Shown here in pieces: positions 4,996-56,189 of a stretch of 64,000 bases of DNA. Both the position numbers and the translations under genes were made by a program. Source of the DNA: Holophagales bacterium (GTDB lineage: Bacteria; Acidobacteriota; Thermoanaerobaculia; Multivoradales; UBA5704). Under the pieces are notes generated by a model, which worked only from the letters and a program-made list of their open reading frames with translations, made no database searches and was not told where the DNA came from. Numbering within the stretch: position 1 is the first letter of the stretch; each line of letters begins with the position of its first letter. Where the stretch lies: contig JANMTS010000105.1 of the NCBI GenBank assembly GCA_031390755.1, positions 64,007-128,006 on the forward strand, written 5' to 3'.

Positions 4996-5081
4996 GAACG
5001 GACCTCTAGCTCGAAGCATGAACGGACACACCGCGCCCCGGATGGGCGGGCATGGGCGAATGCGCGGACCAGGGTCTCGGT

Positions 5082-5804
5082 CTATTCGTTGATGCGGCGG
5101 ATCCGCAGGCGGAGCGGCACCTTGGCCGGCCGGGGCAGGGTCTGCACGGGAACGGGATGCGTTGGCGGCGAATCGAGAGCCTCGTCCTGCCGCGGAGGAG
5201 GAATGGCCGGCCGGGCCGGACCCGGCGCGAGCAGCAGCAGGCCGAAGCGCCCCGCGGGCCGGGCTTCCTGGACGTTGGACGACGGGGCCCAGGTGAACAC
5301 CTCCCGCAGCCCGTCGCCCTCGCGGGAGCCTTCGACCCAGATGACCGTTCCCGGATCGTTCGAGCGCGCCTTCTCGCCGCGCGCGCGAGCCAGAAGAGGC
5401 AGCGTTGGGCCATCATCCCTGCTCATGTCCCCGACGATGCTCATGCCGGCCGGCCCCTCGACCTCGACCTCCTCCATGGTGATGCGCTCGTCGCCGAAGC
5501 GGAGTAGCATCCGCACGTTCTTCGAGGGAAAGGCGGGGACGCGGAAGTCGAAGACCCGGATCGAGCTGTCGAGGTGGGGCGTGACGCGAAGCGGCCACGT
5601 GCGTCCGCCGTCGAGGGAAAGGAAGGCCTCCCACTCCACGACTTCAGCAGGGAGGCTGAGGGGCTCCCATTCGATCGTCACCCGGGAGCCGGCGGCCAGC
5701 TCCGCGCCAGGGGCTGGAGACAATACTCGCGCGAGCTCTTCCCCGCGGGCAATGGAGGGAAGAGCGGCGAGCAGAAGGATCAGCCAGCCGAGGGAAGGAC
5801 GCAC
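5082..5804 (-). CDS. hypothetical secreted protein
   Basis: ORF 5082..5876. The signal-like VRPSLGWLILLLAALPSIARG begins at GTG 5804-5802. The ATG at 5876 lies in the AT-rich repeat block and is less likely. No recognisable family. Confidence 0.5.
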   Translation of the reverse strand: MRPSLGWLILLLAALPSIARGEELARVLSPAPGAELAAGSRVTIEWEPLSLPAEVVEWEAFLSLDGGRTWPLRVTPHLDSSIRVFDFRVPAFPSKNVRMLLRFGDERITMEEVEVEGPAGMSIVGDMSRDDGPTLPLLARARGEKARSNDPGTVIWVEGSREGDGLREVFTWAPSSNVQEARPAGRFGLLLLAPGPARPAIPPPRQDEALDSPPTHPVPVQTLPRPAKVPLRLRIRRINE

Positions 5805-5844
5805 GGCGTTAGTGTAGCAGGGCGGAAAAATCGGCGGCCCAAGC

Positions 5845-6180
5845 GTGTTGCAACTCCGCTCTTCTGCTACAAACAAGGTTATGTTGCAACAAATAAGGAT
5901 TCCCGTTCAACGGGAAAGCTTATCTGTTGCAAGTTAACCTTCTCTGTTGCAGCATAACCTTATCCCGCGGCCGAGAAGGTTATCCTGCAACAAAGAAGGT
6001 TTCCCGATCCTGGGATAAGCTTCTTTGTTGCAACTTGGGTTTATTTGTTGCAGCTTAACCTTCTCCCGAAGCCGCGTAACCTTCTTTGTTGCAACTTAAC
6101 CTTATCTGCCGCGGGATAAGGTCTCCCGAAGACGGGGAAACTTTGTTTGTTGCAGATGGAACCCAGGGGAATGCAAAAAT
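5845..6180. repeat. AT-rich iteron block (TGTTGCA(A/G)C x8 direct +1 inverted; TAACCTT/AAGGTTA inverted repeats; TTATCC/TTATCT boxes)
   Basis: GTTGCA starts near 5847, 5883, 5925, 5945, 6026, 6046, 6087 and 6138, plus one inverted copy at about 5987. Hand-counted GC is about 46% over 5881-6180, against about 70% in the flanks. Confidence 0.85.
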
Positions 6181-6186
6181 TTCCAC

Positions 6187-6810
6187 CTACCGGCGGGCGC
6201 GGACGATGAAGCGTTGGGGGGCGGAGCCGACGTAGTGGAACGGATAGCAGGTGACGAGCGTCAAGGCGGGCTCGTCGGTCGGGGCGAGCACCGAAACCTC
6301 GGAGGGATCGACGATCTTCGTCCACTCCACCTTGTAGTTGTAGGTGCCGTCGAGCATGGTCAGCTCGATCGTGTCGCCCTCGCGGACGTCCCTGAGACCC
6401 CGGAAGAAGCTGTCGCGGTGGGCGGCGAGGCCGACGTTGCCGGACGGCTCGGACGGCAGGGCGGTGTCCGGCACGTGACCCGCGGCGCGGCGGAGGGTCT
6501 GCTTGCCCACGCCCTCCAGGATCACGGCGGAAACGTCGAGCCGGGGGATCTCGATCCGCCCGAGCAGCTCCCCTTCCTGCAAAGGCTTCGGATCGGGATC
6601 GGTCTTCTGGGTCTTGAACGAGGAGAGGGAGTCCGTCTCCGAGGCGCCCCCGGTGGCAGCCCTGGCGGCGAGGGTCTCTTCGAGCCGCCGGGTCTCCCGG
6701 GCTTCGACGAAGCGGGTGTCGAGCCAGGCCCAGGTCCAGTAGCCGAGGCAGAGAATGCCGACCACGAACAGGGCGCGCTCCACCCAGAGCCAGGTCGAAG
6801 TCCTCGTCAT
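6187..6810 (-). CDS. sortase (class D/E-like transpeptidase)
   Basis: ORF 6187..6855, with the start taken at MTRTSTWLW (ATG 6810-6808). N-terminal TM anchor. Catalytic His (GLAAHRD), Cys (TLVTCYPF) and Arg (RFIVRA) motifs are present. Confidence 0.85.
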   Translation of the reverse strand: MTRTSTWLWVERALFVVGILCLGYWTWAWLDTRFVEARETRRLEETLAARAATGGASETDSLSSFKTQKTDPDPKPLQEGELLGRIEIPRLDVSAVILEGVGKQTLRRAAGHVPDTALPSEPSGNVGLAAHRDSFFRGLRDVREGDTIELTMLDGTYNYKVEWTKIVDPSEVSVLAPTDEPALTLVTCYPFHYVGSAPQRFIVRARR

Positions 6811-6834
6811 TCGTCTCCCCAAAAGCGTCTCCCC

Positions 6835-6872
6835 TAAAAGAAAATCACCTGGCACCTTTCGGCGCCAGGTGA
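6835..6872 (-). terminator. rho-independent terminator downstream of the sortase-substrate gene
   Basis: On the minus strand, a 9-bp stem TCACCTGGC/GCCAGGTGA (6845-6853 / 6864-6872) with a 10-nt loop, followed by TTTTCTTTT (reverse complement of 6835-6844). Confidence 0.7.
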
Positions 6873-6913
6873 CTGAGTCGATCTCTCTTCACGTCGTGAG
6901 GAGACCGTGTGGT

Positions 6914-7387
6914 TCAGACCTTGCGGGCCAGGCGGGCCGTGAAGGCCGAGGCCAGGGCCAGGAGGCCGGCGATGCCGAGCAGCGGAAGCTCGCTGGCGGT
7001 CGAGGGCAGAGCCGTCGTGTTCGCCGCGGAGCCGTCGTCAGCCTGGGTGGCCGGGCCGGTGCCGGTCTCGTCGATGCCGGTCGCGTTCGTGTCGGCGTCG
7101 CCACGGGTCATGGTCGCGTCCACGTCGACGGCGCCGTTCGCACGGGCACCGGTGTCAACGTCGACGTCCATGCCGCCGGTCGGCTCCTGAGTGGTCGTCG
7201 TGGTCGCGTTGGTGCGCGGACGGGTGAGATCGGTCTGCGGGTTGCCCGGATTGGGCAGGTTATTGCTGTTCATGCCCGGGTCGCGCTGAATCGTGGGGCC
7301 CGGGGCGGACGTGTTGGCCGACTGCGCCATGACGGCGCCCGTTGTCAGAAGGAAGATGGCCAGGACCGTAAGCAGTGACTTTTTCAT
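6914..7387 (-). CDS. secreted low-complexity protein with C-terminal sortase sorting signal (LPSTAS + hydrophobic helix + RLARKV)
   Basis: ORF track, 157 aa. Signal peptide MKKSLLTVLAIFLLTTGAVMA, a Thr/Asp/Gly/Asn-rich body, and the C-terminus ALPSTASELPLLGIAGLLALASAFTARLARKV. Confidence 0.8.
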   Translation of the reverse strand: MKKSLLTVLAIFLLTTGAVMAQSANTSAPGPTIQRDPGMNSNNLPNPGNPQTDLTRPRTNATTTTTQEPTGGMDVDVDTGARANGAVDVDATMTRGDADTNATGIDETGTGPATQADDGSAANTTALPSTASELPLLGIAGLLALASAFTARLARKV

Positions 7388-7536
7388 GATGAAGCTCCTC
7401 TCCAGTTCCAGTTGATGAATCTTTTTCGAAGGCGGCGGTCAGGAGGTCATTCCCGGGGGGTTCACCATGTCCTGCCGCCATCTCTTCCCGGCCTGGATGT
7501 AGAGCAAGCCCCGTGCCAAGAAGCACGCAACAGGGC

Positions 7537-9219
<1,683 letters not shown>

Positions 9220-27455: not shown

Positions 27456-27976
27456 GAAGCCTCCGTCGGGATGACGGATGCTTCCGGCACGGCGCCGGAC
27501 CGAGAAGTCGGCCGCCGGAAGCATCCGCCGTGAACACGGACGTTTCCGGCGTACGACTGAAGCTTCCGGCGCGACGCCGGACCGGTAAGTCAGTCGACGG
27601 GAGCTTCCACCGTGAACACGGACGCATCCGGCGTGACGACTGAAGCTTCCGGCGCGGCGCGGAACCGGGAAGTCGGTCGCCGGAAGCATCCGCCTTGAAC
27701 ACGGACGCTTCCGGCGTACGACTGAAGCTTCTGGCGCGACGCCGGACCTGTAAGTCAGCCGACGGAAGCTTCCGGCGTGAACACGGACGCATACGGCATG
27801 GCGACCGAAGCTTCCGGCGCGGCGTCGGATCGGGAAGTCGGCTGGCGGACGAGTCCGGCACGACTACGGAAGCTGCCGCCATGACGGCGGACGCATCGGG
27901 CAAGACGACGGAAGCTTCCGGAGTGAGGACGGACGCGTCCGGCACGGCGCCGGATCGGGGGAAAGTGCCTTTCCCC
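27456..27976. repeat. tandem array 1 of 41-42-nt palindromic units (alternating A/B types, ~165-nt higher-order repeat) ending in the GGGGAAAG-tgc-CTTTCCCC hairpin
   Basis: GAAGC(T/A)TCC anchors at 27456, 27518, 27559, 27601, 27642, 27683, 27724, 27765, 27807, 27869 and 27911. Block 27518-27682 is repeated at 27683-27848. Confidence 0.9.
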
Positions 27977-37005: not shown

Positions 37006-37186
37006 GAAGGCTCGCCAGTCGGGGGCTGACCTGTCCAGGGTGGGCGCGCTTCCTATACACGTCACTCCCTTGTACGCGAACAAGAACAGGCCGCTTGTTG
37101 CATTCCTCGCTGCTGGAAGCTACATTACCGTAGAAATACGGAAAGGGGGCGTGCATCGACATGCGTGCCTCCAAGCGAGGTTCTTG

Positions 37187-42928: not shown

Positions 42929-43440
42929 GGGAAAGGCGCTTTCCCCGCATCCGGCGCCGCGCCGGACGCATCCGCCGTGATGCCGGAAGCTTCCGCCGTC
43001 ATGACGGACGCGTACGGGACCACGACGGAAGCGTCAGCCGTCATGCCGGACGCGTACGGGACCGCGCCGGAAGCTTCAGCCGTCACGACGGACGCGTACG
43101 GGACCGCGACGGTAGCTTCCGCCGTCATGACGGACGCGTACGGGACCGCGCCGGAAGCTTCAGCCGTCAAGCCGGACGCGTACGGGACCACGACGGAAGC
43201 TTCCGCCGTCACGACGGATGCAACGGGGCCGCGACGGAAGCTTCAGCCGTCACGACGGACGCGTACGGGACCACGACGGAAGCTTCAGCCGTCACGACGG
43301 ATGCAACGGGACCGCGACGGGAGCTTCCGCCGTCATGCCGGACGCGTACGGGACCACGCCGGAAGCTTCCGTCGTCATGCCGGATGCGTACGGGACCACG
43401 GCGGAAGCGACCGGCGCCGTGCCGGAGATCGCTGGAAAGG
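42929..43440. repeat. tandem array 2: ten 41/42-nt units GGAAGCTTC(C/A)GCCGTCA(T/C)GACGGACGCGTACGGGACC(A/G)CGAC plus degenerate end units; terminal hairpin GGGAAAG-gcg-CTTTCCC at the left end
   Basis: Unit starts at 42985, 43027, 43069, 43111, 43153, 43195, 43236, 43278, 43319, 43361 and 43403. Two units are 41 nt and the rest 42 nt. Confidence 0.92.
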
Positions 43441-54731: not shown

Positions 54732-56189
54732 CTACTCCCTCTCGACCACCATCGCGAAGCCCACGCCGCCGGCCGCGCAGACCGTGGCCAAGCCCAGGTT
54801 CTGGCCGCGGCGGCGCAGCTCGTAGAGAAGCTGCATGGCGACCCGGGCTCCCGTGGCGCCGAAGGGGTGGCCGATGGAGATCGAGCCGCCGGTGACGTTG
54901 AAGCGGTCGAAGTCGACCACGCCGAGCGGCTCGCTCCGGCCCAGCTCCTCCTGCGCGAACTTCTTCGAGGCGAAGGCCTTCATGTTGGAGAGGATCTGCG
55001 CGGCGAACGCCTCGTGCATCTCGATCAGGTCCATGTCCCGGAGCTTCAGCCCGGCCGCGTCGAGAGCCGCGGGCGCGGCGTAGGCCGGGCCCTGGAGGAG
55101 CTGGTCCCCGGGGTTGAGCGCCGTGAACGCGTACGAGCGGATGTAGCCGAGTGGGGTCAAGCCCAGCGCCTTGGCCTTCTCCTCGCTCATCAGCAGCACG
55201 GCCGAGCCGCCGTCGGTCAGCGGGCTGGAGTTGCCGGCGGTGAGCGTGCCGTAGCGGCGGTCGAACACCGGCTTGAGCTTCTCCAGGGCTTCGAGGGTCG
55301 AGTCGCCGCGGATGCCGTTGTCCGCCGTGACCGCCTTGTCGTAGCGCGGCGGCGGGAAGGCTGCGGCGATCTGCTTGCCGAGCCGGCCGTCGGCCGTGGC
55401 CGCGGCGGCCCGCTGGTGGGAGAGGAGCGCGATCTCGTCCTGGGCGCGGCGGGAGATGTCGTTCTCCTTGGCCATCTTCTCCGCGGACTCGCCCATGCTC
55501 ATCCCGGTCGTGTACTCGGCGATCGCCGGGGCCACGGGAGCCAGATCCGCCGGCCGCAGCTTGCCCAGCGCGCCCATCTTCGCGGGCAGGGTCTTGGCCT
55601 TGTTCAGCTCCATGAAGGAGCGCGCCGCCTTGCGCGAGAACTGGATCGGGACGTTCGAGAGCGACTCGGCGCCGCCCGCGAGCACCACGTCGGCCTCGCC
55701 GGAGAGGATGGCGCCGGCCGCGAAGGTCATCGCCCGCGTCGACGACGCGCAGGCCAGGTTCACGGTCACGCCGGGGATGCTGAACGGCAGCGAGGTGCGG
55801 AAGACGACCTCGCGCCCCAGGTTCGGAGCATGCAGGGCCGGCACCACCACGCCGAAGACCGAGAGGTCGATCTCCTCGGGGTCGATCCCGGACCGCGCCA
55901 CCAGCTCGGCGGCGGCGGCGCTCGCCAAGTCGATCACGTCCATGTTCATGAAGTCGGTGCCCGACTTGATGAAGGGCGTGCGGCAGCCGTCCACGATCGC
56001 CACCCGGCCGCGGGGGCCCTTGAGATCCTGGCGGCCGGAGACGCGGGTCTTCACCGGCTTGCCGCTGCCGCGGGTCCAGACGGTGTCGGCGCGCTCCGCG
56101 ACCTCCTCCAGTGCGGAGGCGTTGTTGGGACGGCGCAAGGGCGCGGGGGGCTGCGCTTGAACCTGTTGGACCTGATTGCTCTCGGCCAT
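54732..56189 (-). CDS. acetyl-CoA C-acyltransferase (thiolase, FadI-like)
   Basis: ORF track, 485 aa. NLACASS active-site Cys, GNSSPLTDG, GGSISIGHPFGATG and CAAGGVG motifs. Confidence 0.9.
   Translation of the reverse strand: MAESNQVQQVQAQPPAPLRRPNNASALEEVAERADTVWTRGSGKPVKTRVSGRQDLKGPRGRVAIVDGCRTPFIKSGTDFMNMDVIDLASAAAAELVARSGIDPEEIDLSVFGVVVPALHAPNLGREVVFRTSLPFSIPGVTVNLACASSTRAMTFAAGAILSGEADVVLAGGAESLSNVPIQFSRKAARSFMELNKAKTLPAKMGALGKLRPADLAPVAPAIAEYTTGMSMGESAEKMAKENDISRRAQDEIALLSHQRAAAATADGRLGKQIAAAFPPPRYDKAVTADNGIRGDSTLEALEKLKPVFDRRYGTLTAGNSSPLTDGGSAVLLMSEEKAKALGLTPLGYIRSYAFTALNPGDQLLQGPAYAAPAALDAAGLKLRDMDLIEMHEAFAAQILSNMKAFASKKFAQEELGRSEPLGVVDFDRFNVTGGSISIGHPFGATGARVAMQLLYELRRRGQNLGLATVCAAGGVGFAMVVERE

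Follow-up and report, generated by a model that had tools for sequence, protein, structure and literature searches.

The 64,000-nt stretch of DNA analysed here (hereafter the window), which corresponds to contig C6:64007-128006 of a Holophagales bacterium assembly (7.65 Mb in 185 contigs, 68% G+C, ~99% complete but fragmented), carries at positions 5864-6156 an array of short palindromic modules. This array is probably one copy of a species-restricted, non-autonomous, modular palindromic repeat family of ~300 bp, of the miniature inverted-repeat transposable element (MITE) or repetitive extragenic palindrome/bacterial interspersed mosaic element (REP/BIME) kind, which spreads or once spread. 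An earlier note on the window had described the same AT-rich block as iterons with DnaA-like boxes, and had read it as a possible replication origin, DnaA-titration site or centromere, an operator array, or a decayed MITE cluster. The element is multi-copy, discrete, non-coding and lineage-specific; it has inverted termini and phased, constrained cores, and stands at gene junctions that were formerly compact.

Copies of the element in the genome

The genome-wide motif search proposed in the earlier note revealed a scattered element: TGTTGCA/TGCAACA heptamers clustered at 15 loci on 15 contigs, each with 8-13 cores in 270-410 bp and 48-58% G+C. When a profile built from these 15 copies was run on the assembly with nhmmer, all 15 were recovered (E values of 1e-41 to 1e-107), together with 29 weaker sister arrays; the arrays detected were 130-550 bp long, mostly ~300 bp, and the genome thus carries 44 related arrays of about this size. 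The window copy (score 165, E value 3e-48) aligned over its full length with the copies on C76, C125, C128, C111 and others. In BLAST comparisons including 600-nt flanks, pairs of copies aligned end to end over ~320 bp with 67-88% identity, and similarity mostly ended at the array borders; where flanks were alike (C132/C134 and C121/C92), they consisted of the sequence of other repeats.

A multiple alignment revealed a common plan. On the left, the terminus CCAAGCTGCAACAAACAAGC is followed by a tip hairpin and several modules; the central unit, the best conserved of the family, is TGCAACAAATAAGCTCTCCCG-N5-CGGGARAGCTTATTTGTTGCA; on the right come more modules, a further tip hairpin and the terminus GCTTGTTTGTTGCAGCTTGG. 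The element starts with TG and finishes with CA.

Two sister families were found in the same genome. A BLAST search with the window copy also detected four arrays with the same spacer box and a CCGCGGC core, and another family has the core TGCGACA. Because two CCGCGG modules (5965 and 6109) lie within it, the window copy is a hybrid of the TGTTGCA family and the CCGCGGC-core family. The suggestion of a decayed MITE cluster is retained in part: a MITE-type repeat is favoured, but the window copy is a full-length family member and not a decayed one.

The genes flanking the 15 copies were unrelated to each other. Pfam confirmed a MiaB-like radical-SAM protein, FolD, UbiE, TetR, an extracytoplasmic function (ECF) sigma factor, a [2Fe-2S] subunit, a nucleotidyltransferase and a YhgA-like protein; others, recognised from their translations only, we take to be Tex, a KdpA-like protein and so on. 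Copies stood in tandem, convergent and divergent gene contexts. Since the 15 copies flank unrelated housekeeping genes, an operator array for the downstream operon, also put forward in the earlier note, was not supported.

Architecture of the window copy

The low G+C content claimed for the block (~46%) was borne out: 46.3% at 5881-6180 vs 68.3% across the window. The features are as follows.

5846..5854, plus strand: outlying module TGTTGCAAC, just beyond the left terminus
5862..5953, minus strand: long hairpin A (minimum free energy and centroid structures), with the tip TTCCCGT-tca-ACGGGAA at 5900-5916
5863..5880, no strand: left terminal inverted repeat TCTGCTACAAACAAGGTT, with the degenerate core TGCTACA; matches the family terminus CTGCAACAAACAAGC
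5864..6156, no strand: repeat element proper, 293 bp, non-coding, ~14 modules of 20-21 nt, 46% G+C
5957..6123, minus strand: long hairpin B, nested inverted modules, with the tip at ~6000-6016
5965..5970, no strand: CCGCGG box, marking a sister-family module (core CCGCGGC replaces TGTTGCA)
6109..6114, no strand: second CCGCGG box, sister-family module
6122..6138, plus strand: small G+C-rich tip hairpin TCTCCCGAAGACGGGGA, then a T-rich run (predicted fold)
6139..6156, no strand: right terminal inverted repeat AACTTTGTTTGTTGCAGA; family terminus GCTTGTTTGTTGCAG

Each module consists of the heptamer core TGTTGCA/TGCAACA and an AAGSTT box. Eight GTTGCA hexamers (starting at 5847, 5883, 5926, 5946, 6027, 6047, 6088 and 6149) and one inverted copy (TGCAACA at 5986-5992) were found much as described before, except that the last direct copy had been placed at 6138, 11 nt off, and that only six of the eight fit the pattern TGTTGCARC ascribed to all of them. 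TGTTGCA occurred 11 times in the window vs 1.6 expected, a count reached in none of 100 shuffles, and 10 of these fell within 5846-6154; TAACCTT occurred seven times vs 0.5 expected. The extra TTGTTGCA reported at ~37098 was present (at 37096) as a single, chance-level copy. A core comparable to the outlying module at 5846-5854 was found in the variable 40-65-nt tail of other copies.

Inverted repeats had been recognised in the block, but they are far more extensive than those listed: the arms of hairpin A are 44 nt long and 82% complementary, those of hairpin B 66 nt and 79%, and the 18-nt termini (5863-5880 and 6139-6156) are 89% complementary. Since the inverted termini of ~20 nt enclose blocks of modules that face opposite ways, a single strand would fold into two or three long hairpins. 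The predicted fold of the block comprised two long hairpins and the small tip hairpin; the two strands gave energies of -155 and -168 kcal/mol, and z-scores of -11.6 (plus) and -13.4 (minus). Units made of an A-tract, a G+C hairpin and a T-tract resemble intrinsic terminators on both strands, and the tip of hairpin A is terminator-like on the minus strand. The central unit has the layout AACAAATAAG-hairpin-CTTATTTGTT, and a TCCCG-N5-CGGGA tip appears in places within the module strings.

Three other interpretations of the block were rejected. A coding repeat was discarded on account of stop codons in every one of the six frames of the element (2-4 each) and a 20-nt period not divisible by 3. 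No promoter-like site was found across 5000-7600, and an array of sigma-70 promoters was dropped; a sigma-54 (-24/-12) reading of TTGCA, judged by eye, failed for want of GG 12 nt upstream.

Empty sites in congeners

The earlier note had assigned the neighbouring genes wrongly: the sortase gene lies upstream of the block, and the downstream gene encodes a secreted hypothetical protein. The order on the minus strand is sortase, block, secreted hypothetical protein, TonB-dependent receptor; an ABC-F protein is also among the neighbours.

5082..5804, minus strand: gene for the secreted hypothetical protein, downstream of the element; GTG start at 5804, signal peptide
5821..6186, no strand: DNA without a counterpart in congeners, ~366 nt
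6187..6855, minus strand: sortase gene, directly upstream of the element (Pfam Sortase, 4e-31)

Sortase orthologues were found in all 10 congeners (59-70% identical), five of which kept the order substrate, sortase, secreted protein, TonB receptor. The secreted protein had no Pfam family, and its orthologues (49-54% identical) occupy the same position; a TACACT hexamer lies 6 nt ahead of GTG 5804, and TAGACT stands at an equal distance in congeners. As the earlier note had proposed, the orthologous intergenic regions were compared: in all five syntenic congeners, the element was absent, only ~25 nt (…gagcTAGACTagcggg) separated the sortase stop from the next ATG, and the sortase was ~25 codons longer (ending …EWLVDVDTE). 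Here, on the other hand, the sortase stops early at 6187 (ending …FIVRARR), and 5821-6186 stands in place of ~75-100 nt, namely the ~25-amino acid sortase tail and the ~25-nt spacer of the relatives. This comparison showed that an apparent insertion at the 3' end of the sortase gene had removed the C-terminal tail and parted the gene from the next one. Entry of the element into this locus after the species had split from the sequenced congeners is favoured by parsimony.

The tail that is missing at 6187-6260 is acidic, ~25 amino acids long, and found in most congeners. Inversion of the tail segment was considered and rejected; the one 15-nt match (1 mismatch), in one congener, was treated as chance. 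Elsewhere in this gene cluster, a strong intrinsic-terminator-like hairpin (14 pairs and a T-run) lies at 6843-6874 on the minus strand, between a gene for a putative substrate of 157 amino acids and the sortase gene.

Congener sites were empty at all three loci compared: sortase, ubiE-folD and ECF-sigma/tex. The copies at the latter two are:

C58:20047-20411: element copy between folD and ubiE, in a 366-nt gap
C111:19647-20129: element copy in the divergent ECF-sigma/tex spacer (loci L043-L052 compared in congeners)

In 10 of 10 congeners, ubiE and folD abut or are separated by no more than 17 nt, with an ATGA stop/start overlap in seven of the eight junctions printed. The element has thus reshaped genes at two places, with the loss of the sortase tail and the splitting of the ubiE-folD pair. 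At the end of the DNA inserted on C58 stands TAGACT, 6 nt ahead of the new folD start codon (ATG); the hexamer could be a leaderless-type promoter, either brought by the insertion or arisen later.

The ECF-sigma/tex spacer was minimal (100-144 nt) in three congeners, and others held unrelated palindromic elements at the same point. The insertion point lies after …gagttcccg and before gaggtaggatacg…, and at least four different palindromic elements were found there in other congeners. This suggests an insertion hot spot. One congener, G002, has a sister array at this point with the core TTGCGAA and termini like those here (…TTCGCAACAAATAGCCCGATTTGTTGCGAAGTTGG); this sister family has multiple copies in G002 only, the other ten genomes of the genus being practically devoid of it. 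The ECF sigma genes of greatest similarity are those of congeners G009, G004 and G010, which have no array at this locus; independent insertions at a hot spot are therefore favoured over shared descent.

The family itself was confined to this species. The exact central hairpin was present at eight loci of this genome and on one metagenome contig, but not in any of 60 relatives or in any GTDB species genome; the module AASSTTNNNTGTTGCA was counted 33 times in this assembly, against roughly background frequency across 300 genomes of the class.

Rejection of a replication origin

That the block is a chromosomal or plasmid-type origin, a DnaA-titration site or a partition centromere now has practically no probability. 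Apart from its AT-rich look and phased repeats about two helical turns apart, nothing speaks for such a role. At least 15 copies exist per genome, with the 29 sister arrays in addition; the block is missing from the orthologous site in all five syntenic congeners; and a blastn search of 72,556 plasmids gave no match. Because the copies are scattered and the orthologous sites empty, two observations that the earlier note had itself named as telling against it, these readings were refuted.

The TTATCC (5960 and 5980), GGATAA (6013 and 6114) and TTATCT (5920 and 6102) strings lie where they had been reported, but all belong to the spacer box ATAAGSTTATC and are not DnaA boxes. No match to TTATCCACA was found in the block even with two mismatches, and the two one-mismatch hits in the window lie outside the array and are at chance level. 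Genome-wide, the E. coli DnaA consensus cannot place the true origin because no region has more than two near-consensus boxes in 600 bp. The earlier statement that no rep, par or dnaA gene is near the block held; dnaA lies on contig C80. No G-C skew switch was seen at 70 kb, the position of the block on the 193-kb contig C6, where the skew is weak and noisy with a cumulative minimum at 130 kb; a whole-genome curve is impossible with 185 contigs. A false origin or centromere call is thereby removed, and the conspicuous AT-rich island is explained as repeat DNA.

Possible mobility, protein binding and RNA function

If the element is a mobile repeat, a transposase or recombinase acting in trans would copy it as a unit. 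Most simply, the phased heptamer cores would then be repeated binding sites for this enzyme, on the model of the multi-site ends of Mu or Tn7; the hairpins might instead be a single-strand substrate, as they are for IS200/IS605 and REP-associated tyrosine transposase (RAYT) enzymes. The units of A-tract, G+C hairpin and T-tract would act as bidirectional terminators or insulators. Insertion probably uncoupled the sortase from the downstream gene, because the conserved units look like bidirectional intrinsic terminators.

Several observations weigh against this interpretation. Target-site duplications were not seen around the termini of the 15 aligned copies; mobility is compatible with this result because some transposase families make none. 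The highest identity between any two copies was 88%, hence no sign of current activity. A search of this assembly yielded no candidate for the mobilising enzyme: genome-wide, no gene was bracketed by family termini (terminal 15-mer, up to two mismatches), the matches to the 15-nt terminus outside arrays being other repeat arrays or chance hits. A link of the REP-RAYT type was rejected, as none of the 12 Y1-transposase (PF01797) genes in the genome carried modules, which were absent within 1.5 kb save for single TGTTGCA heptamers near three weak hits. The congeners are also distant at 59-70% sortase identity, and parsimony is the one ground on which insertion is preferred over loss in all the others. 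Furthermore, a 20-21-nt phasing is common to ~150 arrays of unrelated sequence in this genome, for which transposition alone does not account. Lastly, congener G004 and the metagenome contig have the same 20-nt module (aaccttcyctGTTGCAactc) in tandem arrays that are purely direct; since direct arrays cannot form long hairpins, an array of binding sites fits them better than a hairpin transposon.

These last points lead to an alternative that we regard as rather unlikely, and that would be compatible with mobility: the element may be a landing pad, where the cores and AAGSTT boxes dock a sequence-specific protein on duplex DNA that polymerises along one face of ~300 bp. Such a protein would be nucleoid-associated, an insulator, a silencer or centromere-like, and the hairpins would be a by-product. 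The distances between successive cores peaked at 18/20/21, 41-44, 61-65 and 85-86 nt; as these peaks lie near multiples of 21, neighbouring cores are in phase at about two helical turns, and the ~150 arrays of other families share the periods of 21, 42, 63 or 84 nt. Among seven full-length copies, the pairwise difference was 6.9% in core columns vs 30.4% elsewhere, the cores being ~4-fold better conserved than the spacers, and 13 of 69 core columns were variable vs 159 of 258 others (Fisher p = 1e-10), a large contrast in a test that is partly circular, since a column was called core if the core was present there in most copies. The arms of 18 tip-hairpin units were complementary at 8.06 of 12 positions, the same as with shuffled partners (8.04 ± 0.29), and the mismatches gathered at the centre of the AAGSTT box, as if this were read as a duplex pseudo-palindrome. 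The hairpin potential stems from conserved modules set in opposite orientation; pair-by-pair compensation was not seen. On the other hand, no small DNA-binding or other candidate binding-protein gene adjoined any of the 15 copies, and no recurrent family of small open reading frames (ORFs) was found within 350 bp of 177 arrays (all-against-all blastp, 132 ORFs). The copies are placed without obvious logic, even inside formerly overlapping gene pairs, and the empty congener sites imply that a pad at these positions is dispensable to the host. The phasing could also descend, unselected, from an ancestral unit of 20-21 nt.

A structured RNA, either a multi-copy non-coding RNA gene or a cis element in the transcript of the sortase operon whose long hairpins would, for instance, stabilise or process mRNA or terminate transcription (roles proposed for transcribed REPs), appears improbable. 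It would agree with the very stable predicted folds, with the terminator-like units on both strands, and with the location of the element between two genes that point the same way and almost adjoin in relatives, so that it is probably transcribed. The energy of the fold was better on the strand of the flanking gene in ~8 of the 11 copies with a definable gene direction, but this bias is weak and inconsistent, the copies are non-independent, and it is confounded with G+T strand composition. In Rfam, at E values up to 1, only a plant microRNA model (24 bits vs a gathering threshold of 100) and a tRNA-like pseudoknot were hit, both far under threshold. Mismatches in the hairpin arms were G·T in 23 cases and A·C in 21. 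The absence of partner-specific covariation and of a G·U excess thus disfavours an RNA gene, and the tandem, convergent and divergent contexts of the copies also stand against it.

A combination of mobility and protein binding can be envisaged, which we put forward tentatively and hold to be unlikely as a whole: the elements would be mobile landing pads, self-spreading cassettes of 10-13 phased duplex sites for a sequence-specific protein, and would form, together with the ~150 other arrays of 21-bp period, an undescribed lineage-specific system of chromosome organisation or insulation in Thermoanaerobaculia. It is just as doubtful that, under this combination, core specificity (TGTTGCA, TTGCGAA, CCGCGGC and TGCGACA) would shift between species in step with the protein. 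If a protein, whether a transposase or a host factor, does bind the cores, the family would offer a tractable handle on the origin and spread of such repeats, and on their effects on operon structure, in a poorly studied phylum.

Comparison with known repeat families

The element resembles the BIME, REP and REPIN sequences of E. coli, Pseudomonas and Stenotrophomonas, which are dispersed, intergenic, hairpin-forming clusters of palindromic units in alternating orientation, with species-specific families and copy numbers that vary among relatives; they are often located inside operons, and can influence termination and the stability of mRNA. Di Nocera et al. (PMC3733652) described both REP clusters that are reiterated in tandem and REP families that have no dedicated transposase; by their definition, one end of a REP unit bears a GTAG or CGTC tag, and REP/RAYT hairpins are single-strand substrates of a Y1-type enzyme. 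However, the module logo of the element has no GTAG or CGTC tag, no RAYT/Y1 gene is flanked by modules, and the whole ~300-bp array, with its inverted termini, behaves as the copied unit, whereas a REP unit is a palindrome of 20-40 nt or a doublet. To our knowledge, strict phasing of 20-21-nt modules is not a described property of REPs.

The Correia (Neisseria), ERIC (enterobacterial), and BOX and RUP (pneumococcal) MITEs are non-coding elements of 100-400 bp with terminal inverted repeats, present in tens of copies between or within operons; their presence varies, and they affect termination and transcript stability. BOX is modular (boxA-boxB(n)-boxC), Correia makes TA duplications, and RUP is tied to IS630-Spn1. 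The element is like these families in size, termini, modularity and presence/absence, but neither a target-site duplication nor a parent insertion sequence was found for it, and its ~14 phased 20-nt modules with a conserved heptamer are unlike them.

Protein sites of 17-22 bp spaced about two turns apart are known from Mu (L1-L3 and R1-R3), Tn7 (22-bp TnsB sites) and R6K (seven 22-bp iterons), and in the transposon ends (Mu and Tn7) the sites are inverted between ends with 5'-TG...CA-3' termini. These systems may serve as the closest model for the conserved, phased cores, by a likeness of form only: no transposase, Rep or Par gene is associated with the element, and its 10-13 sites per 300 bp fill the whole element and not the ends. 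Its phased modular build, whole-array homology and species-specific cores, together with the lack of a GTAG/CGTC tag or RAYT link, set it apart from the described families. We know of no described small modular repeats with strictly phased, conserved heptamer cores and species-specific variants.

Other phased arrays and repeats

Tandem Repeats Finder (TRF) detected ~150 tandem arrays of at least 120 bp in this genome with periods of 20/21, 42, 63 or 84 nt, belonging to many unrelated palindromic families; period 21 alone accounted for 122 records. Examples are:

C37:27151-27766
C104:94428-94860
C172:5675-6138
window, ~27456-27976
window, ~42929-43440

One of the 12 Y1 (IS200-like) genes, at C148:101787, has a different hairpin repeat, cctggcattgaaatgccagg, on both sides, which gives a REPtron-like layout; its flanks (101380-101440 and 102280-102340) are direct copies of a ~300-nt segment carrying this repeat. 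The 14-mers of the cctggcattgaaatgccagg hairpin occur eight times in the genome, and one such hairpin adjoins the TGTTGCA element of C76 (~56110-56160).

In congener G004, the direct tandem array lies at C49 (L009), positions 1440-1780, with ~17 units of 20 nt and the module aaccttccctGTTGCAactc; it is upstream of what is presumably a blaI/blaR1-like pair and downstream of a divergent unrelated gene, the genes being named from their translations only. Arrays of 20 nt with other cores were found in two more congeners (L008 and L010). A genome of the same order, G322, contains the dispersed single-copy motif AACGTTGGGTGTTGCA at 13 loci (e.g. C20:249315), which probably represents the core of a further repeat family.

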